Shown one piece after another: positions 22,408-62,888 of a stretch of 64,000 nt of DNA. Position 1 is the first letter of the stretch; every line of letters begins with the position of its first letter. Below the pieces are notes generated by a model. That model did not search any database. It was not told where the DNA came from and saw nothing but the letters and a program-made list of their open reading frames with translations. The DNA is taken from contig OZ244626.1 of the NCBI GenBank assembly GCA_965218495.1, forward strand, positions 1,353,280 through 1,417,279, read 5' to 3'. The DNA is from Rhodothermales bacterium (GTDB lineage Bacteria > Bacteroidota > Rhodothermia > Rhodothermales > Bin80). The position numbers were made by a program, and so were the translations under genes.

Positions 22408-22663
22408 GCACTATGCGCAAGACCTTTATTCCGCCCGTGGACCTGTCGTTTGAGGAGGCAGTAAAGAAGCTCGTGACGACGAAGCCGAAACGAACTTCTC
22501 CAATATCCGACCGATTTCGGCGCGATTCGACAGCAAAGAAGCAGGGCAAGCAGAGAGGGAAAAGGCAAGGCACTTCTTGACGGCGCAGGAGACTCTCAAG
22601 AGGTTTGGACCGTCCAAGACCCACGCCCAGTTGGCCCCTTGCAAGTACAAGTAACTATATAAT

Positions 22664-22678
22664 TCCCTTATCTTTGGG
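22664..22678 (+). repeat. 15-nt direct repeat, copy 2 (CCCTTATCTTTGGGA)
   Basis: Identical to 20279-20293. Confidence 0.8.
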
Positions 22679-23164
22679 ATTAAAATACTCTACTTGGCAG
22701 AATATTTTTCGGGGGTGACTTGCATCAAGCACGGTTTTGTATTGATTGGCTGGTGCCAATTCCAGCTAGGAAGCGCGGTCTTGTCGGGCCTCCTGCTGAA
22801 TAAAAGAGCCATTCTAGCGTTCAGGGCCGCTCCCTGAACCGACGAATAGATAGGACATCTTGCGTAACAGGTTGACGATAGTAGAGGTTTGGTAGCGCTT
22901 TAGGTCTTGCTGTTCGGCTTTGCAGGGCGGGGCCCGATCCCCGCCTTGCGATCCGCTTCCCGGAACATGGCCGCGCAGGCCCGCCGTGCCAGCGCCTCTA
23001 TGCGGTCAAAAGGTAGGTAGGACTGCTTTTGGCTAGCCTTCGATGGCCCGCTGGCCTTCTTCATGGTGATGCATTCGGAACGGTTAGAATCGCCAGCTAC
23101 ACATGAGAATAGGAGTAGTCATAGGACAGGCGACGATGGGCACCTTTGGATCGCTGGTGTGCAT

Positions 23165-23274
23165 ATTCCGGTCGATTTCGACCATCTATTCCGGTGGAAG
23201 TCGACCACTCATTCCGGCTGATGCCGACCACCTATTCCAGTGGAAGTCGACCACTTTTTGTCGACTACCGGAAT
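23165..23274 (+). repeat. Four direct 23-bp repeats plus one inverted partial copy (IS21-type multiple terminal repeats)
   Basis: Units ATTCCGGTCGATTTCGACCATCT / ATTCCGGTGGAAGTCGACCACTC / ATTCCGGCTGATGCCGACCACCT / ATTCCAGTGGAAGTCGACCACTT, then an inverted GTCGACTACCGGAAT. The array lies ~100 nt upstream of the istA-like start. Confidence 0.7.
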
Positions 23275-23372
23275 GGGAATTCAGGTCGGTTTAGCTGGGC
23301 TGTCGGCGCGACTGGAGATTCTATTAACGCCCTGGGTATGGGGTGCCTCGTCATCCACTCACGAGGTAATCC

Positions 23373-23525
23373 ATGCCTGCAAAAAGAATCTCCGTGCGCA
23401 AACTCAAAGAAATACTTCGCCTGAAGCACAAGGGCGGGATGGGTGTGCGGTCCATAGCCCGCTGCCTGGGATTCCTGACTTCCGCGGTTTTGCCGAGGGA
23501 GGGGCGGTGCCGCCAGCCAAGATGA
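23373..23525 (+). pseudogene. IS21-family istA, N-terminal stump only
   Basis: MPAKRISVRKLKEILRLKHKGGMGVRSIARCLG... is the typical IstA HTH N-terminus. The reading frame then degenerates and stops after 50 codons. Confidence 0.55.
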
Positions 23526-23860
23526 GGTGGTAATTCGATCATTGGCCGCTTCAGCCTGAGGTGTCCAGATTACGTGTGGATTAGCCGAATTGGTGGCTAC
23601 ATTGTCCGATTTGGGCCCCTTTTTGCGCTTTTTTAGGGCAAATCGATCCATTGTGGTACTCCTGGCGTGCGTTGAGACACCAAGGGCGGTAGTATGCAGT
23701 GTTGGATGTGATCCCCAAAACATGTGCCAGGGCATCACGCGGGCCGTGTCGATTCGGGCGATGCTGATTTGTAGTGTTCAGTCCTATTTAGTGCTTTACA
23801 TTGTTAAGATGCTGATGTACCTTAGGGCGTAGCGATACTCGCAGCCATCCCGCGCTCAGC

Positions 23861-24136
23861 ATGTTCGTCCGTACCGTCCGACGCAAGACCACCCAGAACG
23901 TTAGCGTACAGATTGTCGAATCGACCCGCGTACCCGGCAAGGGACCGCTGCAGCGGATCGTCAAGCATATGGGCTCTGCCCCTGAAGGGCCGCTGCTGGA
24001 GGCGCTGGTGCGGTTGGCGCACCGGGCGAAGCTGCGGCTCCTGGAAGAGAGACAGCCCTCCTTGTTTCCTATAGATATTATAGAAGGGGCCGGAGAGGGG
24101 GCACAGGCTATTTTGCCTGTGAGGCGCAGGCGCCTG
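23861..24136 (+). pseudogene. IS1634-family transposase, fragment 1 of 3 (N-terminus)
   Basis: MFVRTVRRKTTQNVSVQIVESTRVPGKGPLQRIVKHMGSA...ERQPSLFP is the typical IS1634 N-terminus. In the ORF track it is artificially fused in frame to the IS110 transposase. Confidence 0.65.
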
Positions 24137-24169
24137 GACTTCATCCTTCTCCATAGACCTTACAACCCC

Positions 24170-25312
24170 ATGAACCACACCATAAGTGTCATCCCTTCTC
24201 AGAAGTCGGTCTTCGTCGGGCTGGACGTACATAGAGACACGATCGCGGCGTGCGTATACGATCCGGCTTCGAAGAGGGTCTGTCTTGAAGTGGAGCTGCC
24301 CAGCGACGACAGGGCCAAGCTGCGTAAGCTTATGGCCCGTATTCGTGGTTCCTTTGGCGAACCCCGGTGTTGTTACGAAGCGTCCTCGTGTGGCTACACG
24401 CTCTATAGAACGCTCAGTGACGACGGAGTCGCCTGCGCGGTCATTGCACCTTCGTCGATTCCACGGCGTGCCGGTGATCGAGTCAAGACGGACCGTCGTG
24501 ACGCGGAAAAGTTGGCCCGCTACTACGCGGCGGGCCTACTGACGGCGGTTCACATCCCCGACAAGGCGTTGCTTGCCGCCCGAACGCTGGTGCGCCGCCG
24601 GGTTACTCTGGTCGAAGATTTGACCCGCACCAAGCAACGCTCCGTGCTCTTGTTGCAAAGCCGCGAGCATGTGTACCGGGCGGGCAAGAACTGGACGCAG
24701 AAATTCTGGCGGTGGCTGGAAGGCCTCGCGCTTGACCCCGTTGATGCGTGTACGCTGCAAAGCTTGTTGAACCAATGCCAGATGCTCGAAGCCCAGATCC
24801 GGGAGATAGAGCAACATATCGAAGAAGAGGCACAGAAGGCATGCTATCAGCCCACGGTGCAGGTATTGCAAGCCTTCCGTGGCATCGGGCTGTTTACAGC
24901 GATGCAGCTGACTTGTGAAATCGGTGACATTCGGCGTTTTGCACACCCGAAAGCACTGATGGCATATCTGGGATTGGTGCCCTCGGAGCATTCCTCCGGC
25001 CACCGCACCCGGCACGGCTCGATTACCAAGGCCGGTAACACCCATGCCCGCAAGGCTCTGGTCTCTGCGGCCTGGAAATATACCCACTACCCCCGGCGTA
25101 GCCAGGCGCTGCACCAGCGCCAGCACCACTGCGCTGCGGAAGTGATTACCATCAGCTGGAAGGCTCAGCGGAGACTACACAAACGATACCGCAGCCTGAT
25201 TCAGCGTAAAGCGCCCACGAAAGCCATCGTGGCCCTTGCGCGCGAACTCGTGGGCTTTCTCTGGGAAGCCATGCAGACGGTGCCGCCAACACCGGTGGCC
25301 CTTGCGGCCTAA
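24170..25312 (+). CDS. IS110-family transposase/recombinase (DEDD RuvC-like + Tnp domain)
   Basis: MNHTISVIPSQKSVFVGLDVHRDTIAACVYD... (N-terminal DEDD motif), then ...LQAFRGIGLFTAMQLTCEIGDIRRFAHPKALMAYLGLVPSEHSSG.....GSITKAGNTHARKAL (C-terminal IS110 signature). Confidence 0.85.
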   Translation: MNHTISVIPSQKSVFVGLDVHRDTIAACVYDPASKRVCLEVELPSDDRAKLRKLMARIRGSFGEPRCCYEASSCGYTLYRTLSDDGVACAVIAPSSIPRRAGDRVKTDRRDAEKLARYYAAGLLTAVHIPDKALLAARTLVRRRVTLVEDLTRTKQRSVLLLQSREHVYRAGKNWTQKFWRWLEGLALDPVDACTLQSLLNQCQMLEAQIREIEQHIEEEAQKACYQPTVQVLQAFRGIGLFTAMQLTCEIGDIRRFAHPKALMAYLGLVPSEHSSGHRTRHGSITKAGNTHARKALVSAAWKYTHYPRRSQALHQRQHHCAAEVITISWKAQRRLHKRYRSLIQRKAPTKAIVALARELVGFLWEAMQTVPPTPVALAA

Positions 25313-25565
25313 ACATGCCCGAAACGCTTCCGAGAACAGAACAGCTATGGGAAAAGGGGCCCTGCGCACGGATGGAGAGTCCATGCCGATACTCTGCGAT
25401 AGCCCTTGTGGCGAGCTCGCGAAAATAGATTATGGTAGCTCCCGACGAATTCAATATCAGGCGTTACGGCCAGCACTGCTGGCTTAGCACGCGGACACCA
25501 GGTTGATAAGCCGTCGAAGATGCCAGGGCCCCTTTTCCGATAGCCAGCTCATGAAGATTATGTGA
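25313..25565 (+). ncRNA. Candidate structured non-coding RNA in the IS110 3' region (bridge-RNA-like position)
   Basis: Perfect 15-bp inverted repeat GGAAAAGGGGCCCTG (25350-25364) / CAGGGCCCCTTTTCC (25524-25538) encloses ~160 nt. The location in the element's non-coding end is where IS110-family guide RNAs are encoded. Confidence 0.3.
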
Positions 25566-26588
25566 ACTTACCGCACACATATCACCGCCCCCTTGACCCG
25601 GCCCCTTCTACACCAGTATCTGGCCGAGCGCGTGCAAGGGGCCCGCCATGGCAGCCAGGGCGACCAGCCGCTGCCCATACCCGATGCGCGCAAGCTGGCC
25701 GAGACCAAGCGTCTGACTATGGGCTTTCACGAGGTCTTCGGGGCGCTGTACGATCGGCTGCACTTTCAGAAGGTCTTCGGGGCCCGCAAAAAGATGGCGG
25801 CGCGCCTGTTTCGTCAGGCCGTGCTGATGCGACTGGCCGCGCCGGGCTCCAGCAAGCGCGCGTGCTGTGACAAGCTTTCCAGGCACCATGGCGTGGAAGT
25901 GAACCCGAACAAGTTCTACCGCATGATGGACGCGGTCAATGATGACCGGATTGCGCGGCTGCAGTCGATCGTCTCGCATGAAGTGCGCGGACTCTTGCAA
26001 GAGCATGTGGACGTCCTCTTCTTCGACGTAACCACGCTTTTCTTTGCCAGCGACAAGGCCGATGATCTTCGCAAGAAGGGATTCAGCAAAGACGGTAAGC
26101 CGCAGAAGGTGCAGGTCGTTCTGGCCTTGTTCCAGAGCGTGGAGGGGCTGCCGATAGGATATGAGTTGTTTCCAGGTAGCACGACCGATATGCGCACGCT
26201 CAAGCCGGCACTGAAGGCCCTGCGGGAGCGCTTTGAGATAGGCAGGGTGGTCTTGGTTGCGGACGCCGGGATGCTGAGCCAGGGCAACCTGGACCTGCTC
26301 GCCTCCCAGGGTTGGGACTGGGTGGTCGCGGCGCGCCTGCGCAGCTTGCCACGCAGGATGGAGGCCGAGCTTTTCGAGTCCCATGACTGGGTCGCGGTCA
26401 GCGAAGATATCAGCGTAACAGAATTGCAATTAAAGGGCCAGCGTCTGGTGTTGCGCCACAGCAAGAAGCGGGCGGCCAAGGATGTCCATGAACGTGATGG
26501 AATCGTAGAGAAGCTCAAGCGTCGCCTAACGCAAGGCATTAAGGGAAGCGGCAAACGAGGCCGCTTTCTCAAGGTGGACCGCGATGCT
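25566..26588 (+). pseudogene. IS1634-family transposase, fragment 2 of 3 (central DDE region)
   Basis: ...HVDVLFFDVTTLFFAS...KKGFSKDGKPQKVQVVLALF...PIGYELFPGSTTD...VVLVADAGMLSQGNLDLL... is the IS1634/IS4 DDE core. It ends ...FLKVDRDA at the IS1380-like insertion. Confidence 0.7.
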
Positions 26589-26605
26589 GGGGATTGCACA
26601 TTTTT

Positions 26606-28011
26606 GGCTCTTCCCCTAATCAGATGGGTGCAGTGTTGTATTCAACGGGAAACGAAATGAGGTGATGCGGATTCATACCCGCTTCTTGCCTGTTTCAAGG
26701 CCATCATCACGATGGCGCACACGTTCTCTAACCCCAGCAACGATATGTCACAACTAAAGACTGATATCGGTTGCCTCTTGGGCATCCAGACTCCCTGGAA
26801 GGTTTCCGAGGTGACGTTTGCGCATGAGGCGCAAGAAGTCCGGATTCATGTAGCTTGCGAGGACGGCCATCAGCTGCCTTGTCCGGAGTGCGGCTCGGCG
26901 TCTCCGGGCTACGACCACCGTCGTCGGCAATGGCGACACCTGGATCTGTGCGAGTATCGCACCATGGTGATTGCGGAGCTTCCCCGCGTGGAATGTCCTG
27001 AGCATGGAGTGCGCACCGTGTCGGTTCCGTGGGCGGAACCTATGTCACGGTTCACTGCAGGGTTTGAGGCGCTGGTGATTGATTGGCTGCAGGAGGCGAG
27101 TGTGTCGGCGGTGTCCCGTCTGATGGGGGTGAGCTGGAATGCGATAGACGGGATCATGCAGCGCGCGGTGCAACGCGGCCTTGCGCGGAGGAAGGAACGG
27201 AATGTAGCCCATATTGGCGTGGATGAGACCTCTTTTCGCAAGCGCCATGCGTATGTCACCATTGTTTCGGATGCGAAGGCGGGTACGGTGCTGCATGTGG
27301 GCGAAGACCGTAGGAAAGAAACACTTACGCGTTGGTATGCTGGGCTCACTTTGGAGCAGCTGGAGGGCATCGAGAGTGTCAGCATGGACATGTGGCCGGC
27401 CTACATCAACGCCACGCTGGAGCATGTGCCAGAGGCGCAACGGAAGGTGGCCTTTGACAAATTCCACGTAGTGAAATGTCTGGGAGTTGCCGTGGACAAG
27501 GTTCGGCGCCAAGAGCACCGGGCGTTGATGAAGGAAGGCCTGGAAGACCTCAAGGGAACCAAGTATGATTGGTTGACTCACCCGGCCAACATGTCTGCTA
27601 AGCAGAAGGCGCGCTTCCAGCAGTTGCGTACCAGCACGTTGAAGACGGCCCGCGCGTGGGCTATCAAGGAAATGGCCCTGCAGTTGTGGCATTATGTCCA
27701 CCGCACATGGGCGCGCAAGGGTTGGGAGCGATGGTTGTCGTGGGCCATGCGGTGCCGGCTGGAACCGGTCAAGGCAGCCGCCAGAACCATCAAGACACAC
27801 CTGTGGGGTATCCTCAACGCAATTATCCTGAAGGTGAGCAATGGCCCTGCGGAAGGCATCAACAGCCGGATCAAAACGATCAAAGTGCGCAGTAGGGGCT
27901 TCCGCAACAAACGGCGGTTTGCTAACGCCATTTACTTTCACCTCGGAGGCCTGGATCTTTACCCCGAAAGCGTCCGCAGGTGAGCTTACCCACTAAAAAA
28001 GGAGTAGAGCC
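26606..28011 (+). mobile_element. ISL3-family insertion sequence, copy 1
   Basis: Ends are GGCTCTTCCCC... and ...GGAGTAGAGCC (imperfect IR). There is a perfect 8-bp target duplication, ACATTTTT, at 26598-26605 and 28012-28019. Near-identical to copy 2 at 41405-42812. Confidence 0.85.
26712..27983 (+). CDS. ISL3-family transposase
   Basis: 423 aa: ...CPECGS...HLDLCEYRT...VECPEHGV... (zinc finger), ...HIGVDETSFRKRHAYVTIV.D... and ...SNGPAEGINSRIKTIK.RSRGFRN..., ISL3 hallmarks. Confidence 0.9.
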   Translation: MAHTFSNPSNDMSQLKTDIGCLLGIQTPWKVSEVTFAHEAQEVRIHVACEDGHQLPCPECGSASPGYDHRRRQWRHLDLCEYRTMVIAELPRVECPEHGVRTVSVPWAEPMSRFTAGFEALVIDWLQEASVSAVSRLMGVSWNAIDGIMQRAVQRGLARRKERNVAHIGVDETSFRKRHAYVTIVSDAKAGTVLHVGEDRRKETLTRWYAGLTLEQLEGIESVSMDMWPAYINATLEHVPEAQRKVAFDKFHVVKCLGVAVDKVRRQEHRALMKEGLEDLKGTKYDWLTHPANMSAKQKARFQQLRTSTLKTARAWAIKEMALQLWHYVHRTWARKGWERWLSWAMRCRLEPVKAAARTIKTHLWGILNAIILKVSNGPAEGINSRIKTIKVRSRGFRNKRRFANAIYFHLGGLDLYPESVRR

Positions 28012-28485
28012 ACATTTTTTAGTTGGGTTTCGGCGGCTTCTGCCGAGATGGGCCCTCAAAGTAGATATCTTTTGGCAATAGATGGTGCTACGGGCCGAGT
28101 GTGTGGGTGCAAATGGGACGGTGCAAGCTTATATGGGCCCAAATGCGTGCTCACACGCGGATTTTCGGGCGCAGGCAGGCTCGTGGAGTGACTTCTCGGG
28201 CACGAAATCCCGCAGGAATCCTCTGATTGCACGCGTAAGCGGCGATCTTGGCAGGGTGCAGCGCCTCAGAGCGTCCGGACAGCTGCGGGTTTTGCTTATG
28301 CCAGCGTCAGCAGCGCACTACTGCGCGCGGGCATTGAGCGCCAGGTGTTGCCTTTGCAGTCCTTTGGGGCCGGCAGACCGAATCCCCACTAACCCGGATA
28401 AATCACCAGTGTGCCAAGAATGGGAACCCAAGCCCCACGTAAGTATATGATGTGCAATCAGTTATAACCATCCTTTGCACTGCAA

Positions 28486-29937
28486 ATGAGCAAAACAGAC
28501 TGTCATACTGAAGAGCTTCGTTTCGAGGACTTGGGACGGCGTAAAGTGGTCGGAAAGTTCGACGGCGGCCCTATGTCCTCGGACGCAGGTGCGCTGCTGT
28601 TACGGGAGGCCGACCGGATGTTCGACGTCATAGGCCGCTTTGCCGCCTGCTTCACCGACCACCGTGATCCCAGCAGGGTCGAGCATACCGTGGAGGCGAT
28701 GCTCAGGCAACGTATCTACGCGATATGCTTGGGCTACGAAGACGTGAACGACCATGACCGTCTGCGGGACGATCCCGTGTTGGCCATGGGCGTGGGCTGC
28801 GAAGATGTAACAGGTGCGCACCGGGCACGGGAACGCGACCAGGGACATCCGCTGGCGAGTTCCAGCACACTGAACCGACTGGAGCTCGGCTCCAAAGGAG
28901 GGGCCGCATCGCACAGGTACAAGCGCATCGTAGCGGACCCTGAAAAGATCGACACCATGCTCGCGGACTTGTTCATGGATGTAACGGGCGAGGAGCCAGA
29001 GCATATCGTGTTGGATCTCGATGCTACCGATGACGCGATTCACGGCCAGCAGGAGGGGCGCTTCTTTCATGGTTACTATGGCCACTACTGCTACTTACCG
29101 CTGTACATCGTTAGCGGCAAGCATGTGCTGGCCGCTCGTCTGCGCCCCTCCAACATTGACGCATCAGCGGGCACGATAGAGGAGTTGGCGCCAGTGATAG
29201 CGCGTATCCGTGCGCGGTGGCCGCAGGTGCCCATCTGGATTCGTGCAGATGCAGGATTCTGCCGCGATGATATCATGGCATGGTGCGAAGCACAGGGCCT
29301 GCACTACATCATTGGTATGCCGCTCAATGCGCGGCTGAAACGCATCGTTGAGGAGGCTATGGAGCAGAGTCAGGCCACCTGCGAGGCCAGCGGGCAGCCT
29401 TCGCGGCGCTTCCGCAGCTTCGAGTACCAGACGAAGGACAGCTGGAGCTGTGCTCGGCGCGTGATAGCCAAGGCGGAATGGCTGCCTGGACCGCGCGGCT
29501 ATAACGCGCGATTCGTGGTCACCAATTTCAGCGAAGACGCGTACGACGCGCGCACGCTATACGAAGATTTGTATTGCGCGCGTGGAGACATGGAGAACCG
29601 GCTCAAGGAGCAGCAGCTTACCCTGTTCGCTGACCGCACCTCTACGTCCATGATGGAGAGCAACCAGTTGCGCCTGTACTTCTCTACGGTCGCCAACACC
29701 CTGATGACCATCATCAAGACCGTTGGCTTGCAGGGCACCGCGATGGCGCAGGCGCAGTGCGCTACTATCCGTGTGCGGCTACTGAAGATCGCAGCACTGG
29801 TGGTGGTAAGCGTACGCCGAGTCCGCCTGCTCTTGCCCGAGGCCTATCCCTGGCAGCAACTGTTCGCGCGCGTGCTAAACAACTTGCGTGGCGCTGTGCA
29901 CACCACCCAGGTCGGCGCACGCGCCTCACCTTCATAG
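28486..29937 (+). CDS. IS1380-family transposase
   Basis: 483 aa: ...LDLDATDDAIHGQQEGRFFHGYYGHYCYLPLYI..., ...IRADAGFCRDDIMAWCE... and ...YCARGDMENRLKEQQLTLFADRTSTSMMESNQLRLYFS..., the IS1380 pattern. Confidence 0.8.
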   Translation: MSKTDCHTEELRFEDLGRRKVVGKFDGGPMSSDAGALLLREADRMFDVIGRFAACFTDHRDPSRVEHTVEAMLRQRIYAICLGYEDVNDHDRLRDDPVLAMGVGCEDVTGAHRARERDQGHPLASSSTLNRLELGSKGGAASHRYKRIVADPEKIDTMLADLFMDVTGEEPEHIVLDLDATDDAIHGQQEGRFFHGYYGHYCYLPLYIVSGKHVLAARLRPSNIDASAGTIEELAPVIARIRARWPQVPIWIRADAGFCRDDIMAWCEAQGLHYIIGMPLNARLKRIVEEAMEQSQATCEASGQPSRRFRSFEYQTKDSWSCARRVIAKAEWLPGPRGYNARFVVTNFSEDAYDARTLYEDLYCARGDMENRLKEQQLTLFADRTSTSMMESNQLRLYFSTVANTLMTIIKTVGLQGTAMAQAQCATIRVRLLKIAALVVVSVRRVRLLLPEAYPWQQLFARVLNNLRGAVHTTQVGARASPS

Positions 29938-30164
29938 GCCGTTCCGGATCCAACTTATCCCACAGATTGATAGACGCCACATGGTGGTTGCAGGATACGT
30001 GTATCCAAGAAGCACCGGTGCGCGAACAAAAGCCTTGATTCGCGCTCGAAACATGCCCGAAACAGCGCTTGCAGCCGCCGACTATTCGCTCTGGAAGGCG
30101 GGAATCAGCATTCGCGTTCGCAAACCGTGACCCACTGCCTACAAACGCCCCGAATTATGGCGAT

Positions 30165-31424
30165 TCAAGAGCTTGGTGAGCGATGCGGGCTAACCCATCG
30201 ACCCCCGGAGGTGCTCAGGACCTTGGTCAGCTCCTTCATGTCCTCCCGGCGTATCGGCTTCAGATTCGACTCGTACTGCATGAATATCGCCCCGCACCAG
30301 CGCTGACGCATCCCCGATGATCCCCAGCGCTTCACGTTCCGTGATCGGTTCGCAATAATGCTGTTGAGGTTCTCGATGATGTTCGTCGTCTTCAGACTGT
30401 CTCTGACAGCCTGGTTCCGCACCCCCAACCGGTGAAGTGTCAGCGTATCCTCCAAACCCTCCTCCAGACTGCGTGCGGCCTTCGGACACGATCGCTGCAG
30501 CGCTCCATGCAGCGACACAAGCGCCGCCCGTGCCTCCTTGTACGTGGGTAGCTCCCATGCCGCCTGAAGCCGACGCTTCATTTGCGTGGCCGCTGGCTCG
30601 TTTTTGATGTGACGCGTCACATTGGTACGCTTGTGCCATTGGCAGCGCTGGAACACGACCGCATCCCCAAACACCGCACTGATCCCCTTGCGAAGCCCGC
30701 GGCTGCCGTCCACCTGTACCAACAGCTTGTCGGTATGGGTGAAGCCCCGACGCAACAAATCCTGCAACAGCGACTGCACCTGCGCACTGTTCTCGGTACG
30801 ACTTTCCGCAAAGCCCAGCACGACCTTCTCGCCCTCGGTCGTGATGCCCATCGCTACGATCATCTGCACACCAGCCAAATACTTGCCATCAAGCAGGAGC
30901 ACCGCAAAAGTGTGCTGATCGAAGCGGCGCGTCTCAAATTCCTTCAGTAGCGCTGCCGTCTGCGTAACGAAGGCGTTGCCGACGCTGCTGGCACTCAACC
31001 CCAGACTATCGGTGAAGACTTGGGCCGCCTGCCTGTAATTGCGCCGCGAGAGTCCACACAGCAACCCCCTGGTCACGCTTTCCCGGTCCATAAGCCCACG
31101 CTCGCGCAAGAGGCGGTACGTTTGCAGAGGACGCTCCTTTCGGGTTCGTACATTCCGTACGCGCGGAACGCGGACCGCAATGCGCTCCAAACCGACGCGG
31201 ATGGAACCCGGATTCGTCCTCCAGCGCTGAAAGCCGGTCTTACGGTGCTTCCCACGTGCGCCGCAAATGAAGCGGGCTTCGGCTTCCATGACCCATGTGG
31301 CCATCTTGGTAAGAAGATCATCGAGATATCCAAGGCAGCTGGCCAGGCCGATGAAATTCCTCTGCGCAAGCCCGTGAAGGTCCTCGATGAGTGATTGATC
31401 CAGCATAGGGGTATGGGTCATCAT
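30165..31424 (-). CDS. IS256-family (Mutator-type) transposase, catalytic residues apparently intact
   Basis: 419 aa: ...FAVLLLDGKYLAG..., ...LLVQVDGSRGLRKGISAVFG.AVVFQRCQWHKRTNV... and ...TTNIIENLNS..., the IS256 DDE blocks. Confidence 0.85.
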   Translation of the reverse strand: MMTHTPMLDQSLIEDLHGLAQRNFIGLASCLGYLDDLLTKMATWVMEAEARFICGARGKHRKTGFQRWRTNPGSIRVGLERIAVRVPRVRNVRTRKERPLQTYRLLRERGLMDRESVTRGLLCGLSRRNYRQAAQVFTDSLGLSASSVGNAFVTQTAALLKEFETRRFDQHTFAVLLLDGKYLAGVQMIVAMGITTEGEKVVLGFAESRTENSAQVQSLLQDLLRRGFTHTDKLLVQVDGSRGLRKGISAVFGDAVVFQRCQWHKRTNVTRHIKNEPAATQMKRRLQAAWELPTYKEARAALVSLHGALQRSCPKAARSLEEGLEDTLTLHRLGVRNQAVRDSLKTTNIIENLNSIIANRSRNVKRWGSSGMRQRWCGAIFMQYESNLKPIRREDMKELTKVLSTSGGRWVSPHRSPSS

Positions 31425-32389
31425 ACGGCGTTGAGGTTGATGAGAGTCTCACGAAGTTGTGGCAGATGGGCCGCATGGGCCACACGGCGCAGCTGAGCCT
31501 CGTGTTCCAACAGCGCCAGTGCCATCTGTTCGCGTTGCTGGAAAACGGCGCTGGCCGGGGCCTGCAACCTGCGACCGATGGCATGCATGAAGCGCATCAC
31601 GCGCAGCCCTCTGTCGAGCTTGAGCAGCATGCCCGTGCGTTGAATCGTCAGAGATTGCTCCAGGCCCTCCCATAGAACCTTCGCTGCGGACCGATTGACG
31701 CGCGTCAAGTCCTGGTGAATACGGGTGAGTGCGCGTTCAGCTTCCCGGGCATCGAACCCGTTCCATGCCTGGCGGAGGCGATTGCGATACACAGGAACAA
31801 GGTCTTCCGGAAGACCACAGGTGACTTGATCCAGTAGCGTATTGAGACAGCGCTGTATGGCGACCCTGGGGCCGAACACCTGGCGCACCGCCGATTGCAG
31901 TCCCGTACTGCTGGGCAGCACACAGAGCAACCCGTCGGCGGCCGAAAGACCACGATCGGACAGCGACTGCACAAAGGACGCAAGAGCAGAGACGTTCTCA
32001 GGGTAGCACGCTACCAGGCCAAGTATGCGGCGATAGCCCGTGATGGTCAGACCCGCTCCAAGAACGATGTTAACGCCGCGTGGGCACAGCCCGCGCAGCC
32101 AGATCGCAACGATCGGGTCGTCTTGCAGACTGCGCGAATGCAACAGCTGCCACGCTTCATTCAACTGCGCCGAGTCCGGCTTTGTGTCCTGGGCCGCAGC
32201 AGAGGCCTTGATCACTACGGGCGGTGGCACCGGCTGCTGATGCGCTGCCGGAATGGGCCAGTCGGTGGTCAATTGTTGCAGTATGTGCGTGCAGAGCTTC
32301 ATCAGAAGCCGCCGCGCGTCACCGGAGGGATTGATCTGGGCGTCTGCAGGCGCCTCAGTGCTCCCCAAAACAGGCTGTGGGGGGGTCAT
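31421..32389 (-). CDS. IS256-transposase-like paralogue lacking the DDE residues, translationally coupled to the downstream transposase
   Basis: 322 aa and alignable to the neighbour: IVAIWLRGLCPRG (vs LLLDGKYLAG), LLCVLPSSTGLQSAVRQVFG.RVAIQRC (vs QVDGSRGLRKGISAVFG..VFQRC), LRVMRFMHAIG (vs TNIIENLNS). Its stop overlaps the next start (GTATGATGACC). Confidence 0.6.
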   Translation of the reverse strand: MTPPQPVLGSTEAPADAQINPSGDARRLLMKLCTHILQQLTTDWPIPAAHQQPVPPPVVIKASAAAQDTKPDSAQLNEAWQLLHSRSLQDDPIVAIWLRGLCPRGVNIVLGAGLTITGYRRILGLVACYPENVSALASFVQSLSDRGLSAADGLLCVLPSSTGLQSAVRQVFGPRVAIQRCLNTLLDQVTCGLPEDLVPVYRNRLRQAWNGFDAREAERALTRIHQDLTRVNRSAAKVLWEGLEQSLTIQRTGMLLKLDRGLRVMRFMHAIGRRLQAPASAVFQQREQMALALLEHEAQLRRVAHAAHLPQLRETLINLNAV

Positions 32390-41404: not shown

Positions 41405-42812
41405 GGCTCTTCCCCATTTTAGATGGGTACAGCGTTTCATTCAACGGGAAACGATATGAGATGATGCGGATTCATACCCGTTTCTTATCTGTTTCAAGGC
41501 CATCATCACGATGGCGCACACGTTCTCTAACCCCAGCAACGATATGTCACAACTAAAGACTGATGATATAGGTTGCCTCTTGGGCATCCAGGCTCCCTGG
41601 AAGGTTTCCGAGGTGACGTTTGCGCATGAGGCGCAAGAAGTCCGGATTCATGTAGTTTGCGAGGACGGCCATCAGCTGCCTTGTCCGGAGTGCGGCTCGG
41701 CGTCTCCGGGCTACGATCACCGTCGCCGGCAATGGCGACACCTGGACCTGTGCGAGTATCGCACCATGGTGGTTGCGGAGCTTCCCCGCGTGGAATGTCC
41801 GGAGCATGGAGTGCGCAACGTGTCGGTTCCGTGGGCGGAACCTATGTCACGGTTCACTGCAGGGTTTGAGACGCTGGTGATTGATTGGCTGCAGGAGGCG
41901 AGTGTATCGGCGGTGTCCCGTCTGATGGGGGTGAGCTGGAATGCGATAGACGGGATCATGCAGCGCGCGGTGCAACGCGGCCTTGCGCGGAGGAAGGAAC
42001 GGGATGTTGCCCATATTGGCGTGGATGAGACCTCTTTTCGCAAGCGCCACGCGTATGTCACCATTGTTTCGGATGCGAAGGCGGGTACGGTGCTGCATGT
42101 GGGCGAAGACCGTAAGAAAGAAACACTTACGCGTTGGTATGCTGGGCTCACTTTGGAGCAGCTGGAGGGCATCGAGAGTGTCAGCATGGACATGTGGCCG
42201 GCCTACATCAACGCCACGCTGGAGCATGTGCCAGAGGCGCAACGGAAGGTGGCCTTTGACAAATTCCACGTAGTGAAATGTCTGGGAGCTGCCGTGGACA
42301 AGGTTCGGCGCCAAGAGCACCGGGCGTTGATGAAGGAAGGCCTGGAAGACCTCAAGGGAACCAAGTATGATTGGTTGACTCACCCGGCCAACATGTCTGC
42401 TAAGCAGAAGGCGCGCTTCCAGCAGTTGCGTACCAGCACGTTGAAGACGGCCCGCGCGTGGGCTATCAAGGAAATGGCCCTGCAGTTGTGGCATTATGTC
42501 CACCGCACATGGGCGCGCAAGGGTTGGGAGCGATGGTTGTCGTGGGCCATGCGGTGCCGGCTGGAACCGGTCAAGGCAGCCGCCAGAACCATCAAGACAC
42601 ACCTGTGGGGTATCCTCAACGCAATCATCCTGAAGGTGAGCAATGGCCCTGCGGAAGGCATCAACAGCCGGATCAAAACAATCAAAGTGCGCAGTAGGGG
42701 CTTCCGCAACAAACGGCGGTTTGCCAACGCCATTTACTTTCACCTCGGAGGCCTGGATCTATACCCCGCAGCGTCCGCAGGTGAGTTTACCCACTAAAAA
42801 AGGGGTAGAGCC
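41405..42812 (+). mobile_element. ISL3-family insertion sequence, copy 2
   Basis: Same ends as copy 1 (GGCTCTTCCCC... and ...GGGGTAGAGCC). The flanks TGAAAATG / AAAAAATG form an imperfect 8-bp duplication. Confidence 0.8.
41511..42797 (+). CDS. ISL3-family transposase
   Basis: 428 aa, nearly identical to 26712-27983 except for a few substitutions and a different C-terminal tail caused by an indel. Confidence 0.9.
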   Translation: MAHTFSNPSNDMSQLKTDDIGCLLGIQAPWKVSEVTFAHEAQEVRIHVVCEDGHQLPCPECGSASPGYDHRRRQWRHLDLCEYRTMVVAELPRVECPEHGVRNVSVPWAEPMSRFTAGFETLVIDWLQEASVSAVSRLMGVSWNAIDGIMQRAVQRGLARRKERDVAHIGVDETSFRKRHAYVTIVSDAKAGTVLHVGEDRKKETLTRWYAGLTLEQLEGIESVSMDMWPAYINATLEHVPEAQRKVAFDKFHVVKCLGAAVDKVRRQEHRALMKEGLEDLKGTKYDWLTHPANMSAKQKARFQQLRTSTLKTARAWAIKEMALQLWHYVHRTWARKGWERWLSWAMRCRLEPVKAAARTIKTHLWGILNAIILKVSNGPAEGINSRIKTIKVRSRGFRNKRRFANAIYFHLGGLDLYPAASAGEFTH

Positions 42813-57424: not shown

Positions 57425-58321
57425 TTGCGCGCAATCCGCTTTTACGCGCCTATCCTGTTTGCCCTGGTAGCAACAGGTTGCGATTCAGTCGGCAACCAGC
57501 AGCTGGATACGGTCTTCGTCGTGGAGTCCATTTTGGTTGCGGGGCAGCCTTTGCCGCCCTTGCTCTTAAGCAGGGTTGGCGACATTGACGAGAAGTATCT
57601 GTTCGAGGCGCACGCCGAGCCTGGTGCCCAAGTCACGGTACTTGTGACGGGAGCAGTGGCCAACGAAACCGTGCGCTATCAAGAGCTAATAGATGTGCCA
57701 GGCGTATACATTCCGAGGAACTATGACTACCCCGTACTGCCGCTCCACCAGTACGACCTAACGATCCAGCCTGCGACCTCTACGCAGCCCATCACGGCTT
57801 CGACAGTGGTACCCGACACCTTCAGCATTGCGAGTGTCTCGCAGACTGAGGTAATCTATCAGAGCAGCAATCAGCTCCGTTTCCGCATAACACCTAGCCA
57901 CTACCCTGGGCGAGACCAGAGCTACTTCATCTTTGTCACGGAGGCAGTAGACGCATTTGAATCAAACCTCGTGCCGTTTGCGAAGGAGCGGTTCGATGAT
58001 GGAGATGGCGAATCGCTGGAGGAGTTGCGCGTCAACCCATCACCCATCATCAACGAAGACAACTACGAAGTCAATGATGATGGCACGCTAAACCTGCGGT
58101 ATCCGTGGGTTGGCATCAACTTCTTTGGGCCCAACATCGTCCATGTGAATGTGCTGGATGACAACCTGTACAACTTTGAGCGCTCCCGCGCCGTCCAGGA
58201 GGGTGGCTCCACGTTTGCTCCCGGCGAGATTCCCAATCCTCTGCCGCATGTCAATGGCGCCCATGGCCTGTTTGGCAGCCAGGCGCGTGTTTCGGCGCAG
58301 TTTACGGTGATTAGGCCCTAG
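57425..58321 (+). CDS. DUF4249-like lipoprotein (TBDR partner)
   Basis: Lipobox MRAIRFYAPILFALVATGCDS. The size and the position directly after a CarbopepD_reg-TBDR are typical of DUF4249. Confidence 0.5.
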   Translation: MRAIRFYAPILFALVATGCDSVGNQQLDTVFVVESILVAGQPLPPLLLSRVGDIDEKYLFEAHAEPGAQVTVLVTGAVANETVRYQELIDVPGVYIPRNYDYPVLPLHQYDLTIQPATSTQPITASTVVPDTFSIASVSQTEVIYQSSNQLRFRITPSHYPGRDQSYFIFVTEAVDAFESNLVPFAKERFDDGDGESLEELRVNPSPIINEDNYEVNDDGTLNLRYPWVGINFFGPNIVHVNVLDDNLYNFERSRAVQEGGSTFAPGEIPNPLPHVNGAHGLFGSQARVSAQFTVIRP

Positions 58322-58543
58322 CCTGCCTTCCGCAGGCGTCTACACGCACGGAAGTACTGGCCCGTTGAGCCCCGGCAGTGGAGCAACACATGTGTCGTCC
58401 GAATTGCCGGCCGCACATGCACGCTTGCCGACTCGCATGCAGAAAAGGACCACCTACCAAGGCTAGATTGGCCACTCAGCTTCGTTAGCCTTGGGCACTG
58501 CCCTTGCCCATGGGCGCTCGGGTTACTAAGGGACTTGGAGCAA

Positions 58544-58828
58544 TCAGCCAGGCGGTCTACGTTGCCATCGCAAGGGAAAACCGATGCCAACTAGAATCGA
58601 CAACGCACGGCTCCCTCCCTTGCTGTCAATCCTTAACCCACGCTGGTAGAGCGGTGTTAGTCCATAGTTGTACAGGACGTCTAGTGACAGTGACCAAGAA
58701 CGTGACGTTGCTATGTTTATGCCGGCACCTCCTATTATCCCTAAGTCCGTTACCCGTAGCACTCGGACAAGCATGTCGGGACAGTCTATAGAACGCGACT
58801 CGGCGGCTCGTTTCTGCGTGTACTTGGC
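58544..58828 (-). CDS. Beta-barrel OMP, exon 2 (C-terminal strands)
   Basis: ...VTDLGIIGGAGINIATSRSWSLSLDVLYNYGLTPLYQ...SRALSILVGIGFPL... aligns with the C-terminus of the paralogue at 15807-16448. It is in frame with exon 1 once the intron is removed. The boundary could be 58834 if the 3' splice site is 6 nt upstream. Confidence 0.7.
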   Translation of the reverse strand, partial: AKYTQKRAAESRSIDCPDMLVRVLRVTDLGIIGGAGINIATSRSWSLSLDVLYNYGLTPLYQRGLRIDSKGGSRALSILVGIGFPLRWQRRPPG

Positions 58829-59102
58829 ATCGCGGTAGCCCCCGGATTTCCCGGGGGCCCCGCACAGATCCGGACGTGCGCGTTAACGCATCCGGCTCCT
58901 CCCTTGGGTCGCGCCGTCGCGCATGACGTTAGCAGGTCGGCAAACCGACCCGCAGCCGTAACCGATCCGTCCCCTGTGACACGCAGTATCCGACGCTGTG
59001 TCCGGTACGTGTGAAACTTCACGATTTCCCCTTGGGTGCGACGCTTCGCTCCACTGACTCCGCCACGAGGGCACCCCCGCTTTGTTCGCCGGCTTCATAG
59101 CT

Positions 59103-60648
59103 GTCGGGTCGGAGGAGGCGCCCCGTAGGGCTAACCTCCGTCCGCCGCTCAAACGGCCCGTACGGTTTTCACACCGGTAGCCCCCGGGTTTCCCCAGGGG
59201 CCCCGGACAGATCCGGACGTGCGCGCTAACGCATCCGGCTCCTCCCTTGGGTCGCGCTGTCGCGCATGACGTTAGCAAGTCGGCAAGCCGACCCGCAGCC
59301 GTAACCGATCCACCCCATGGGGCACGCAAAATCCGGCTCAGCGTCCGGTACGTGCAGGGCTTCGCGGTTTCCCCTTGGGTGCGACGCTTTGCTCCACTAG
59401 CTCCGCCACGTGGGCACCCACGCTTTGTTCGCCGGCTTCATAGCTCTTATCATCGCATCTGACTTCTCCCTGCCGTGCATCCTCCGCTCGGCTTTCGCCT
59501 TGACTTTGGCGGCCCCGCCCGAAGCGCTGGGCAGCAAGGAGACCTCTCAGGTCCCGACACAGTACGTACGTGCGTCCCTGGGTTCTCGGACACCGCGGGA
59601 CTCCGCTCCTCCTCACCATAGCGGTGGAGCAGATGTTGCCTTCGACCATACGGAAAGTCTCGGCATCCCGGACAATAGCTTTTTCGGTGCTCATTAGCCC
59701 TGGCCACACGTGCCGCTACCGACGCTTCGCTGTCACCCTCACGAGGGACAACGCACGGCTCGCGGAGACATGCAGTTGGTTAAACTTTCATGACACGGGA
59801 CTTTCACCCGCTGTACTGCGTCAGTTAGCCTGACGCACCCGTAAGCCGCTTTCACAAAGGTGTCTCGTGGAGGGTTCAAGGAAGGTTTCAGTGGAATCAA
59901 TCGTACATGGCCGTACTCCACTGTGGTGTAGACCTTCCTCTCCCCTGTTGGATTGTGCCCAATGCGACAGTTTCCTCAGCCGATGATGTACGGGTCTTTC
60001 ACTAAAGGAACTGTTCCACCTCATCGACTTTACTCGCTGATCGCAATCTCTCCATTCCAAACCACCTTTGCCGACTGCCTTCCCCGACCCACCCGGCCGC
60101 CACTTGCGCGGTCACCCGACTTTCGACGGGCTTGTGGTACTATGCAGCCGTCCGACGACTCGCCACGCATCCGTTCCCACTTCCCCTTACGGGTTATAGG
60201 GGCTGTTATCCCGGTGCCACCCGGGAACGTGACGAGCCCTCCTGGGGTCACACACAGATCTTCCGTACCGTGCCGTTCGCACACACCTTGGTTCGACGGG
60301 TGGATAAGAACGCCTTCGCCGAAATACAGCCGGCTCGACCTTGCCCCGTCTTTGGCCGACCGATTCGTCCGTGGGGTCGCCCCCTTGACTACGGCCCGGT
60401 ACTGCTCCTCAAGCCCTTCAGATTCCACCTCGCGGTGGACACCCTGCCCTCCGGTTGTCTCGCGACAATGTCCCGACTTAGCGCCTGTCTTGGCTGTTTC
60501 CGTCGTTTCCAACTCGGTGCCCGTTTAGACCTTTGCTTATCGGTACATCCCGGCCGACGAGGCATTACCCCCGTCTTTGGATATGGCACCCCCTATCCGG
60601 GCGCCAGTGGGATTTGAACCCACCTGATCTGGGCGCTGCCCAGCACAC
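59103..60648 (-). mobile_element. Group II intron C (middle; ORF-less; 878 nt of its own sequence), nested in intron B
   Basis: The 5' end reads GTGTGCTGGGCAGCGCCCAGATCAGGTGGGTTCAAATCCCAC. It contains ..GGTGGAATCTGAAGG... The internal UGUAU (60324-60328) is complementary to the flanking ..AUACA. The 3' end is ..CCUCCGACCCGAC, with an unpaired A 7 nt from the end. Its removal makes B exactly colinear with A. Confidence 0.75.
59171..59838 (-). mobile_element. Group II intron A (innermost; ORF-less; 668 nt), nested in domain V of intron C
   Basis: The 5' end reads GTGCGTCAGGCTAACTGACGC...AGCGGGTGAAAGTCCCGTG. Domain V lies at 59210-59241. It is homologous to B along its full length, with compensatory changes. 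The internal CCGUA (59649-59653) is complementary to the flanking ..UACGG. Confidence 0.8.
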
Positions 60649-61042
60649 TGTATCGTCGCATCTGACTTCTCTCCACCGTACGTCCTCCGATCAGCATTTA
60701 GCCTACGCTTTGGCGACCTTCCCCAAAGGGATAGGTAGTGGAGAGACCTCCCAGGTCCCGACAGGATACTTGCGTGCGTCCATGGGGTCTCGGACACCGT
60801 GGGCCTGTCCGCCCTCTCACCATAGCGAGGACGAACATGTTGCCTTCGGCATAGAGGAAAACCTCGGCGACCCAGATAATGTCTCTTTCGGTGCTCAATG
60901 TCCCTGGCCACACGTACCGCTACCGACGCTTCGCGCCCACCCTCACGGATGACCACGCACGGCTCGCGGAGATATGTACCTGGTTTAAGCTTCATAACAC
61001 GGGACTTTCACCCGCTATATCCTGCCAGTTAGCCTGGCGCAC

Positions 61043-61519
61043 CCTCTCGGTGACTCCGCAGTTGACTCTAAAGGAGAGTGCCGGACCGATAGTGACATGA
61101 GGCGATAGCTTACCCTTCACGTCACGGCTTAGCGTAAGTAGCAGGGGTAATTCGACATAGTCGAATTCTTGTACAACCTTGATTTCGGAAAAGGGATAAC
61201 CGGAAAGACCCAAATCTGGAAAAACCTGTCGAAAAACCTGGCCCCTTTGCGCATAAGCTGCGCCGAATTGCAATCCAATATTGGGCGCAAGGTGCATGAT
61301 AGCCGATACCCCAACTTTGTACCCAGTTCGATTGCCAACGCCAATCTCTGGCACGCCCTCTGGCAGGCTGGAAGGATTCCATTCGAGGGTCGAGTGTGTG
61401 GTGCCAGCATGAACCAAAACGGTCAACTGCCCTTGCGCACTGTTTGGCAAAGGTAGGCCGACAAACACAAGCAGGAGAAGCAGACGAAGCTTGCGGGCAA
61501 ACCTTGGTGCACTATGCAT
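61043..61519 (-). CDS. Beta-barrel OMP, exon 1 (signal peptide + N-terminal strands)
   Basis: MHSAPRFARKLRLLLLLVFVGLPLPNSAQGQLTVLVHAG...YVELPLLLTLS...VTIGPALSFRVNCGVTER|. The 310-aa track ORF (60992-61924) is an artefact: it extends upstream into the TnpB 3' region and downstream 16 codons into the intron. Confidence 0.7.
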
Positions 61520-61652: not shown

Positions 61653-62888
61653 TTACCAAGAACAGTTGAGCACCCTATGCGATTCTGCGCCGTGAGGAAG
61701 CATCGGCATAGGCCCTGCAGCATCCTTGTCCAAAGGCTTTCCGTGGGCGGTTGGCTCCGGTTCCGCGCGACACGCAGGCAACAGTCGCTGCCAGCCCAAG
61801 ACCGCAAGACCCTTTGCACGAATGCTCTTAGCCGCATTGGCATCCCGGTCCTCGGCATGACGGCAGCATGCGCAGCGATAGGTGCGCACCGACAAGACGA
61901 TAGATTCTGCAGGACGTGCGCCACACAGCCTGCACGTCTGCGTCGTGTGACGTGGCGATACTTTCACGAGCTTGCCTCCAGCGCTCTCAGCCTTGTAGGC
62001 AAGCTGCGTACTGATTTGCCCCAGCGACTGTGCCAGCATCGCGCGGTTCAGACCACGCTTCCTGGAGCCACCACGGGCCGTCAGGTCCTCGAGCTTCAGG
62101 TCCTGTAGCACGAGAATACCATCATGGTCCCTAATAATCGCCGTGGTTATGCGGTTTGTGGCGCTAGTGCGTTTCACCGCAATTCGTCGGCCCTCGCGTG
62201 TCAGCGCTTGTTTCTTTTTGCGCCGCGCATTGCTGCGACGTTTCGCGCGCGACAAGCGCTTCCGCGCACGCTTGTGCTTTGCGTCATCAATCTAGTGGCG
62301 CATACTGCGCGCCGTCAGACAGCGTGCATGCAGCCTTCACGCCAAGGTCTATGCCGATGGGACTGCGCAGATCCGGTTGCAGCGCGGCATCTGTAGTTCC
62401 ATGACGAGTTGTACTTCACAGCCCGTGCCGAGCGGAGTCTGCGCGAGGCATACCTGTCGGGCAGCGCCGCCAGCTGCCAGCGCTCCGCGCACGTCTTTGA
62501 GGCGCAGCTTTCCCACGCCTTTGACTTGGATTGTTCAGTACTGTCCGTTGCGCTTTGGCTTCGTCGCGCCCGATTCGCAGGAGCGAACGCGCCCAAAGCG
62601 CGGCAGCCCCTTGCGATCGAGAATGAACTTCTGGCAGCCCAGCTGCACGCGTTTAAGCGCGCTACGTTGAAACGCTACGCCTCATCGCGTATTGCATCTG
62701 TCAAGGCTGCGCAGCTCCGCCATTCACTTGTACAGGTCGAAGGCGGAGGGCGTAGTTCTATCGGCCGCATATTGATCGCGGCACCGCTGCACGGCTCTAT
62801 TGCGCAGCCATGTCATATGGCGAAACATTGCTTCCAGCCGGTGGCGTTGTGGCTTTCGGATGCGCGCCAAGCGATATGCATAAGGTAT
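61653..62888 (-). pseudogene. tnpB: TnpB (IS200/IS605-family OrfB) relic with stops and frameshifts
   Basis: The C-terminal 200 codons are intact: ...GILVLQDLKLEDLTARGG....GLNRAMLAQSLGQISTQLAYKAESAGGKLVKVSPRHTTQTCRLCG...RTYRCACCRHAEDRDANAAKSI (RuvC + Zn finger). Upstream, my own translation gives IPYAYRLARIRKPQRHRLEAMFRHMTWLRNRAVQ..., interrupted by at least 4 stops or frame changes. Confidence 0.75.

Follow-up and report, generated by a model that had tools for sequence, protein, structure and literature searches.

Is a bacterial protein gene that is split by nested group II introns still expressed through RNA splicing, or has it been overrun by mobile elements? This question is raised by a locus at positions 58544-61519 of a 64-kb stretch of contig OZ244626.1 (assembly GCA_965218495.1, Rhodothermales bacterium), hereafter called the window. 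On the minus strand, to which the coordinates of the gene and its introns refer, a gene for a 253-amino-acid (aa) outer-membrane protein (OMP) of the OMP_b-brl_2 family is broken after codon 159 by an intron of the RF02005 type that lacks an open reading frame (ORF) and is designated A. Instead of the three lying side by side, A holds another intron, C, and C holds a third one, B, all of them being ORF-less group II introns. Such a 2.2-kb nest in an OMP gene was proposed in an initial annotation of this DNA, and covariance models, exon-binding pairings and uninterrupted relatives are now in agreement with it. The alternative put forward there, a splicing-dependent gene or else a recently killed one, is a fair one. 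The evidence leans towards a recent selfish insertion rather than a maintained splicing-dependent gene, and the locus is, in our opinion, very probably a recent pile-up of selfish retroelements in a weakly constrained cellular gene.

Exon 1 (61519..61043) starts with ATG at 61519 and comprises 159 codons, which encode a signal peptide and the N-terminal barrel strands and end with ...GPALSFRVNCGVTER; the signal-peptide-like character of the N-terminus was read off the sequence directly. Exon 2 (58828..58544) contains 94 codons (AKYTQK...TDLGIIGGAGINIATSRSWSLSLDVLYNYGL...ILVGIGFPLRWQRRPPG) followed by TGA. When joined, both exons form, as had been claimed, a single frame of 254 codons, translated into a 253-aa product. 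The joined protein matches PF13568 (OMP_b-brl_2) with E 2.5e-14 and 54.2 bits (gathering score 27) over profile positions 9-174 of 175, exon 1 alone covering positions 9-120 and exon 2 positions 140-174. The frame is indeed kept, as the initial annotation stressed, but this is automatic for any precise intron insertion and has zero evidential weight. Without excision, the reading frame runs 16 codons into intron A (VRQANWQDIAGESPVL) and then meets TGA; this early stop had also been pointed out, and the product annotated in the source genome (P0001) consists of exon 1 and those 16 intron codons.

The join was compared with two independent sequences. An uninterrupted 216-aa homologue (P0002) has 37% identity over 97% of the joined protein and is continuous through the exon junction (...GPALSFRISCSADAG...SLDCDS...). 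The orthologous locus L001, found in a metagenome contig of ENA, has 82% DNA identity to the OMP gene and is aligned without a gap over the junction, which falls between ...CAACTGCGGAGTCACCGAGAGG and GCCAAGTACACGCAG... in it. Both are uninterrupted at the predicted join. Since P0002 and L001 are colinear over the join, the insert is exactly 61042..58829, or 2214 nt, and exons 1 and 2 together are shown by these comparisons to be the ancestral gene. Only three homologues of the protein were found in the protein database, and a search of JGI metagenomes for relatives of the OMP gave none. The paralogue at 15807-16448 of the window, on which the initial annotation relied, also belongs to PF13568, but it resembles the OMP weakly (26% identity over 47 aa, E 0.002); L001 is the better test of the join.

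The insert begins with GUGCG and contains the motif GGGUGAAAGUCCCG, both of which had been noticed earlier. Intron A (61042..60649 + 59102..58829, 668 nt) lies in the OMP gene, intron C (60648..59839 + 59170..59103, 878 nt) in domain IV of A, and intron B (59838..59171, 668 nt, uninterrupted) in the domain V loop of C. The 5' segment of A (394 nt) has GUGCG at 61042-61038, includes the domain I-III region and breaks off in domain IV, within a remnant of the N-terminus of the intron-encoded protein. Its 3' segment (274 nt) carries the rest of domain IV, C-terminal ORF remnants (...TQGRSRMR and a stop codon), domain V (D5) at 58898-58866 and domain VI (D6) with a bulged A at 58836, the 3' end being ...CGAU. 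The 5' segment of C (810 nt) starts with GUGUG at 60648-60644 and contains remnants of its own reverse transcriptase (RT) ORF; the 3' segment (68 nt) includes the bulged A of domain VI at 59109 and ends with ...CCCGAC. Domain V of C is divided into a 5' half (59851-59839) and a 3' half (59170-59151), the insertion point of B being the 5' edge of the domain V loop, and it cannot fold while B is present. Intron B starts with GUGCG at 59838, has D5 at 59241-59209 and a bulged A at 59178, and possesses an unusual 3' end, ...GGUGU.

The boundaries of the introns were obtained by comparison with their relatives. Alignment of the pieces showed that A and B are 81% identical, and A without C is colinear with B as well as with L101, a copy in another Rhodothermales genome that is 98.5% identical to A and continuous over the site of C. 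The site of B is empty in five genomic and about 80 metagenomic C-type copies, including L048, L074 and L093, which read GCGGCUUACGG/GAAAACYGUACG (here and below, a slash marks the insertion point); removal of B restores their exact D5 sequence in C. Because relatives are uninterrupted at each junction, every intron boundary is confirmed. A boundary of B two bases earlier (...CCGGU/GUGAAAAC) was also considered and excluded by the uninterrupted C-type D5s and by homology to the 3' end of A. The site of C is about ten codons into the remnant of the enzyme ORF of A. A consensus fold of 16 family members puts it downstream of domain III and within the sub-hairpin with which domain IV opens, the DIVa-like region carrying the enzyme start codon.

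Group II models of Rfam were expected to match the minus strand, and RF02005 (group-II-D1D4-6, clan CL00102; gathering score 49) matches it in full length (model positions 1-225) twice, on A at 60785-61008 with 164.1 bits (E 1.2e-48) and on B at 59581-59804 with 173.3 bits (E 1e-51). These values are at the top of the range of 141-170 bits recorded for full-length matches in 18 related loci, including RT-encoding ones. All three introns have a D5 hairpin of about 34 nt, which contains the AGC triad and a 2-nt bulge, and a D6 whose bulged A lies 7-8 nt before the 3' end; in the case of A, both elements had been recognised in the initial annotation, and the fold agrees with them. The D5-D6 folds of the three introns have z of -4 to -5, with -44.7 kcal/mol (z -5.0) for A and -46.1 kcal/mol (z -4.0) for the joined D5-D6 of C. 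Termini of the introns are GUGCG...GAU in A, GUGCG...UGU in B and GUGUG...GAC in C, the norm for group II being GUGYG...AY. No intron-encoded RT/maturase is present in A and B, where only N- and C-terminal ORF remnants were found. Between A and L101, 10 positions differ, none of them in D5 or in the exon-binding sites EBS1 and EBS3.

Intron C belongs to a lineage different from that of A and B. Its assignment to group II is based on its termini, D5 and D6, the EBS1-IBS1 pairing (IBS, intron-binding site) and the RT/maturase of its relatives. The basal helix of its D6 covaries (GG/CC versus GAG/CUC) in 81 distinct relatives. Near its 5' end, at 60624-60606, it has the sequence GGUGGGUUCAAAUCCCACU, which looks like the T-arm of a tRNA and is shared by C-type introns. 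A tRNA scan (ARAGORN) nevertheless found no tRNA in the region, and the sequence probably forms a hairpin of domain I that bears a T-loop-like motif. A scan for promoters and terminators revealed neither a terminator on the minus strand of the nest nor a sigma-70 consensus, a result that is uninformative for such genomes.

The pairings of the introns with their flanks were studied in an alignment of A and B with 29 further ORF-less copies of about 640-710 nt, taken end to end (31 in total), by an unbiased scan of each intron window against each 5'-exon window. The hairpin GCCGAG...GAAGGC has intron positions 186-190 in its loop, and these can pair with exon positions -1 to -5 in 28 of the 31 copies, with 17 distinct pairings, against a background of 5 or fewer copies; this is EBS1-IBS1. 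Position 251 (GUGUC[N]RAGA) forms a Watson-Crick pair with the first base of the 3' exon in 30 of the 31 copies, all four pair types being represented (EBS3-IBS3). The same scan gave no signal for EBS2-IBS2. In intron A, EBS1 CCUCU (60857-60853) pairs with IBS1 AGAGG, the last 5 nt of exon 1 (61047-61043), and EBS3 C (60792) with IBS3 G, the first base of exon 2 (58828). In intron B, EBS1 CCGUA (59653-59649) pairs with UACGG of C, and EBS3 C (59588) with G. EBS1 of intron C, UGUAUU (60328-60323), pairs with GAUACA of intron A; 17 other C-type copies have the loop ACUAUG and sites ending with C(A/G)UAGU, so that C in the window represents a two-position compensatory change. Since EBS pairings fit all three sites, A, B and C are each located at a site that they are built to recognise.

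Relatives of these introns are numerous. When the D5 of A and B was scanned in one genome per species, more than 100 loci were obtained, mostly in metagenome-assembled genomes (MAGs) of Rhodothermales, Paracoccaceae and other Alphaproteobacteria, Bryobacterales and Dehalococcoidia. An identical 33-nt D5 is present more than 100 times in such MAGs and, according to record titles (L004-L104), in at least five phylum- or class-level groups, Binatia included. Several of the MAG names look like those of marine-sponge microbiome projects. The colinearity of ORF-less copies across the groups suggests horizontal spread of a non-autonomous intron lineage. Full-length A/B-type relatives measure about 1.9 kb, and the ORF for their protein of about 500 aa ends with a stop codon in the D5 loop (...TQGRSRMR). 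This enzyme passes the NCBIfam model TIGR04416 (group II intron reverse transcriptase/maturase; cut-off 300 bits) with 368.7 bits. Introns A and B retain roughly the first 50 codons and the last few codons of its ORF; as the ends are kept and the middle is gone, both have arisen by internal deletion. Relatives of the C type have a length of about 2025 nt, and their protein of about 420-450 aa also passes TIGR04416, with 388.9 bits; C in the window has only remnants of this ORF. All three introns are thus deletion derivatives of RT-encoding introns that are abundant in Rhodothermales and other MAGs. A 1150-nt gap in the alignment with the C-type copy of L074 was tried as a foreign insertion and rejected, the gap being the RT ORF of that intron itself.

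Intron C of the window is 78-96% identical to C-type introns in L048, L056, L074, L093, L113, L133 and others. At least seven other loci of genomes and metagenomes (L048, L093, L121, L159, L168, L174 and L186) carry a C-type intron at the same point of an A/B-type intron. Judging from this distribution, C has the habit of homing into another intron, about ten codons into its enzyme ORF. B-lineage copies were found elsewhere at YACGG/G sites (L008, L089), and D5 of C contains UUACGG/G. Copies of the family that clearly interrupt an ORF in sense do so in transposase genes or in the enzyme ORFs of other introns.

Some related loci have a more complex organisation. The whole 8-kb loci L081 and L095 (OZ220707.1, a Rhodothermales MAG) are head-to-tail arrays of full-length RF02005-type introns with at least four units, repeated about every 1907 nt, and a frameshift divides their enzyme ORF into parts of 333 and 216 aa. 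Two ORF-less copies, 99.9% identical, directly abut at L089:1770-3109 (OZ253559.1); the 5' flank of the second copy, which is the 3' end of the first one, mismatches its EBS1, and the pair therefore did not arise by ordinary retrohoming. A deeper nest is located at L074:4000-8000 (OZ253559.1), where a full-length C-type intron is inside an RT-encoding intron of a third type (MKEATISLQDL...), with the 3' part of an A/B-type intron directly downstream.

The nest was probably built by retrohoming-type insertions with enzymes supplied in trans, and the most likely order is A into the gene, C into A and B into C. The insertion of C would correspond to the habitual homing site of its lineage, and that of B to a chance match of the D5 of C to the B-lineage target YACGG/G. 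Restoration of the mRNA would need excision of A only, joining 61043 to 58828, because C and B occupy the peripheral domain IV, and domains I-III, D5 and D6 of A are outside C. C and B interrupt the DIVa-like region, the usual place of maturase binding, and an ordered removal (B, C, A) may be required if splicing is to be efficient. In any case, excision would need a cognate maturase encoded elsewhere in the genome. The chance that some correctly spliced mRNA is made seems to be about even, and it is doubtful that the three-level nest is removed in vivo stepwise (B, C, A) by maturases acting in trans, with production of a functional OMP.

The state of the host gene was estimated by comparison with L001. 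Synonymous and nonsynonymous divergences (dS and dN) of the OMP coding sequence are 0.155 and 0.173, which gives dN/dS of 1.12; the substitutions are distributed evenly over the codon positions (40/39/35), and the divergence is close to that of upstream non-coding DNA (82.6% identity). L001 has an in-frame TAG and an insertion of 5.9 kb with genes of the insertion sequence (IS) type and is a pseudogene. As A is 98.5% identical to the L101 copy in another genome, its insertion was probably recent, and intact exons therefore say little about function. In the closest genome, ORF-less copies are 99-99.9% identical among themselves. No second genome with the filled allele, that is, the OMP gene with the nest, was found, and the comparisons gave no sign of selection maintaining the arrangement.

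A number of observations weigh against a selfish pile-up in a dispensable gene. The exons in the window contain no stop or frameshift, and the indels relative to L001 are all in frame. The positions that differ from L001 fall into clusters within loop-like segments (dispersion 2.35, permutation p < 0.0002), and there is 1 stop against about 4.5 expected under neutrality (Poisson P about 0.06); both the clustering and the small number of stops are as compatible with a surface protein that evolves fast and was functional until recently as with a dispensable gene. No maturase or RT gene is present within the 64-kb window. A protein-database search with relatives of both enzyme types found no maturase of the source genome, but the control (the enzyme of L074 itself) was equally absent, which deprives this negative of power. 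The order of insertions is not proven, and the composite could have moved as one unit. The ribozymes are also not quite typical. In D5 of A and B (58898-58866 and 59241-59209), the G of the triad is opposite A instead of the usual G.U, and RF00029 (domains V-VI) falls just below its gathering score of 40, with 38.1 bits on A (58829-58900, E 4.4e-5) and 32.6 bits on B (59171-59243); at the gathering score this model has no match in the window, and these sub-threshold matches surfaced in the E-value mode. The 3' terminus of B is GU, not AY. No Rfam model reaches its gathering score on C, the best being RF02001 with 23.9 bits versus 32.

These peculiarities of the ribozymes have parallels among the relatives. 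In 18 related loci the gathering score of RF00029 is reached by one A/B-type copy (L056, 40.6 bits); copies of the family rarely attain it, even at the loci of RT-encoding relatives, and the scores of A and B are therefore not a sign of decay. The triad G opposite A occurs also in loci L004-L104 (GGAGCCGG...CCGGAUCU), although these loci do not show that it is general in the family, since the D5 search pattern itself enforced it. The B-lineage end ...GGUGU is found at two sites in two genomes, in the window (59175-59171) and at L072:3567-3571, and the same GU end at another site makes the variant terminus compatible with mobility. Both features, being common to mobile relatives, are unlikely to result from local decay. 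Intact C-type relatives are likewise without an Rfam match.

It might be supposed that there are no introns at all and that an assembly artefact or unrelated repeats separate two gene fragments. The source appears to be metagenome-assembled and the region is rich in repeats, but covariance-model E-values of 1e-48 to 1e-51, three base-exact junctions, each with matching EBS and IBS, and the same nesting rule in independent assemblies make this explanation scarcely credible. An origin of the composite A-C-B in another place, from which it would have retrohomed to the OMP gene in a single 2.2-kb piece, is improbable. The core of A is independent of the content of domain IV, the 2214 nt of the composite are close to the size of RT-encoding relatives (about 1.9 kb), and composite mobility has been discussed for the twintrons of Thermosynechococcus elongatus (PMC2882425); however, no second A-C-B composite was found in any fetched locus, and the copy most similar to A, L101, has no insertion at the site of C.

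The question of function is closer to the one asked at the beginning. A functional split gene, from which the nest is efficiently removed (in order or by direct excision of A) with maturases from elsewhere, and which is maintained by selection like Tery_4732 of Trichodesmium, seems unlikely. In its favour are the sense orientation, the intact 254-codon frame and the matched EBS1/IBS1 and EBS3/IBS3 of A. The ribozyme score of A, equal to those of RT-bearing relatives, its differences from L101 sparing EBS1, EBS3 and D5, the stops below neutral expectation and the exclusively in-frame indels also speak for it, and there is the precedent in Trichodesmium (PMC4649490). These points have to be set against the near-identity of A to a copy elsewhere, which may have left the exons no time to decay, the dN/dS value together with the pseudogenised orthologue, and the lack of a second genome with the filled allele among those found. 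Besides, C breaks the DIVa-like region of A, B breaks D5 of C, and the intron family otherwise resides in mobile DNA. It is quite conceivable, if somewhat short of an even chance, that the gene is dead, the nest not being excised because the cognate maturase is absent or the inserts block folding, and the exons being too young to decay. The recent insertion, the window without an RT gene, the neutral-looking evolution with a pseudogenised orthologue, the IS-rich surroundings with a TnpB remnant upstream and the typical position of bacterial twintrons outside functional genes, according to a review (PMC4424553), agree with this. On the other hand, three separate insertions need recently active maturases of both lineages, and the core of A is intact. 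The ORF-less copies with 99-99.9% identity in the closest genome mean that introns are still being mobilised in trans in the clade, a process for which splicing is needed. The recent accumulation of selfish introns in a weakly constrained gene remains the favoured explanation.

The window is chromosomal and contains genes for BamA, Dxr, RseP, SerRS and SurE. Its IS elements belong to IS110, ISL3 (two copies), IS1595 and IS4-like and IS256-like types and form a cluster among housekeeping genes (21490-32389 and 41511-42797), with the ISL3 copies at 26712-27983 and 41511-42797. The IS4-like element of this cluster is DDE_Tnp_1_4, and the IS256-like one is a pair of mutator-family ORFs. Directly upstream of the OMP gene, on the minus strand, there is a C-terminal remnant of a TnpB/Cas12f-like protein (61653-62255; PF07282, E 2e-18). 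It occupies the same place in L001, where the gene caller fused it to the N-terminus of the OMP (P0003). Downstream of the OMP gene, a weak Rfam match to RT-19 RNA on the minus strand (58255-58355; 24 bits versus 78.3, E 0.11) is probably due to chance.

Twintrons in protein genes of bacteria are very rare, and the locus considered here is a clean, base-exact case of three nested introns without enzymes. Related loci show a non-autonomous intron lineage that has repeatedly been retargeted through EBS1 and EBS3 changes, as well as a second, C-type lineage specialised in parasitising A/B-type introns. If ordered splicing does take place, the nest would belong to a clade in which several phyla have been reached both by non-autonomous group II introns and by an 'intron-of-introns' lineage with the enzyme genes of other introns as its homing sites, and it would be a tractable bacterial model of a shared trans-acting splicing apparatus serving many degenerate introns; if not, the locus is a well-documented disruption of a gene by mobile elements. 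In the literature from 2016 on, as represented in an incomplete library, no further twintron in a bacterial protein gene and no report of this intron family in these MAG lineages were found.

Among known systems, the introns TeI3/TeI4 of T. elongatus include an ORF-less lineage that arose via a single deletion and is mobilised in trans (Mohr, Ghanem and Lambowitz 2010, PMC2882425). The introns of the window resemble them in the loss of the ORF by a domain IV deletion with N- and C-terminal remnants, in trans mobilisation with retargeting through EBS changes, and in having inner introns at a conserved point right where the enzyme ORF of the outer one begins (PMC2882425). In T. elongatus, however, inner and outer introns belong to one family in one cyanobacterial genome and no cellular ORF is interrupted, whereas here the lineage of C differs from that of A, the nest is three deep and the outer intron interrupts a protein gene of the cell, in a Rhodothermales-like genome. 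In Methanosarcina acetivorans, nests of up to five introns are formed via homing into other introns (Dai and Zimmerly 2003, as summarised in the review PMC4424553). This repeated site-specific homing is similar to the insertion of C-type introns into the ORF start of A/B-type ones, but the outermost exons here are those of a protein gene. Twintrons of Euglena chloroplasts are also introns within introns in protein genes, where the inner one may need prior removal (PMC4424553). Those introns are of the strongly degenerate group III, reside in an organelle, were fixed long ago and depend on host factors for splicing, while those of the window are bacterial, structurally complete ribozymes and recently mobile. 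Bacterial group II introns are typically located in mobile DNA (PMC4424553), and family copies studied here behave alike.

The closest parallel by host gene is the twintron of Tery_4732 in Trichodesmium erythraeum, a group II twintron within a bacterial protein-coding gene and, according to its authors, the sole such bacterial case known at that time (Pfreundt and Hess 2015, PMC4649490). For Tery_4732, sequential splicing was shown in vivo in a highly conserved gene, and the arrangement is conserved in natural populations (PMC4649490). Unlike Tery_4732, the host gene here has dN/dS of about 1 and no second filled allele was found for it, and the nest has three levels, all of them ORF-less. Summarizing these comparisons, the locus belongs to the bacterial group II twintrons and is unusual among them in being three deep, wholly ORF-less and situated inside a cellular ORF.

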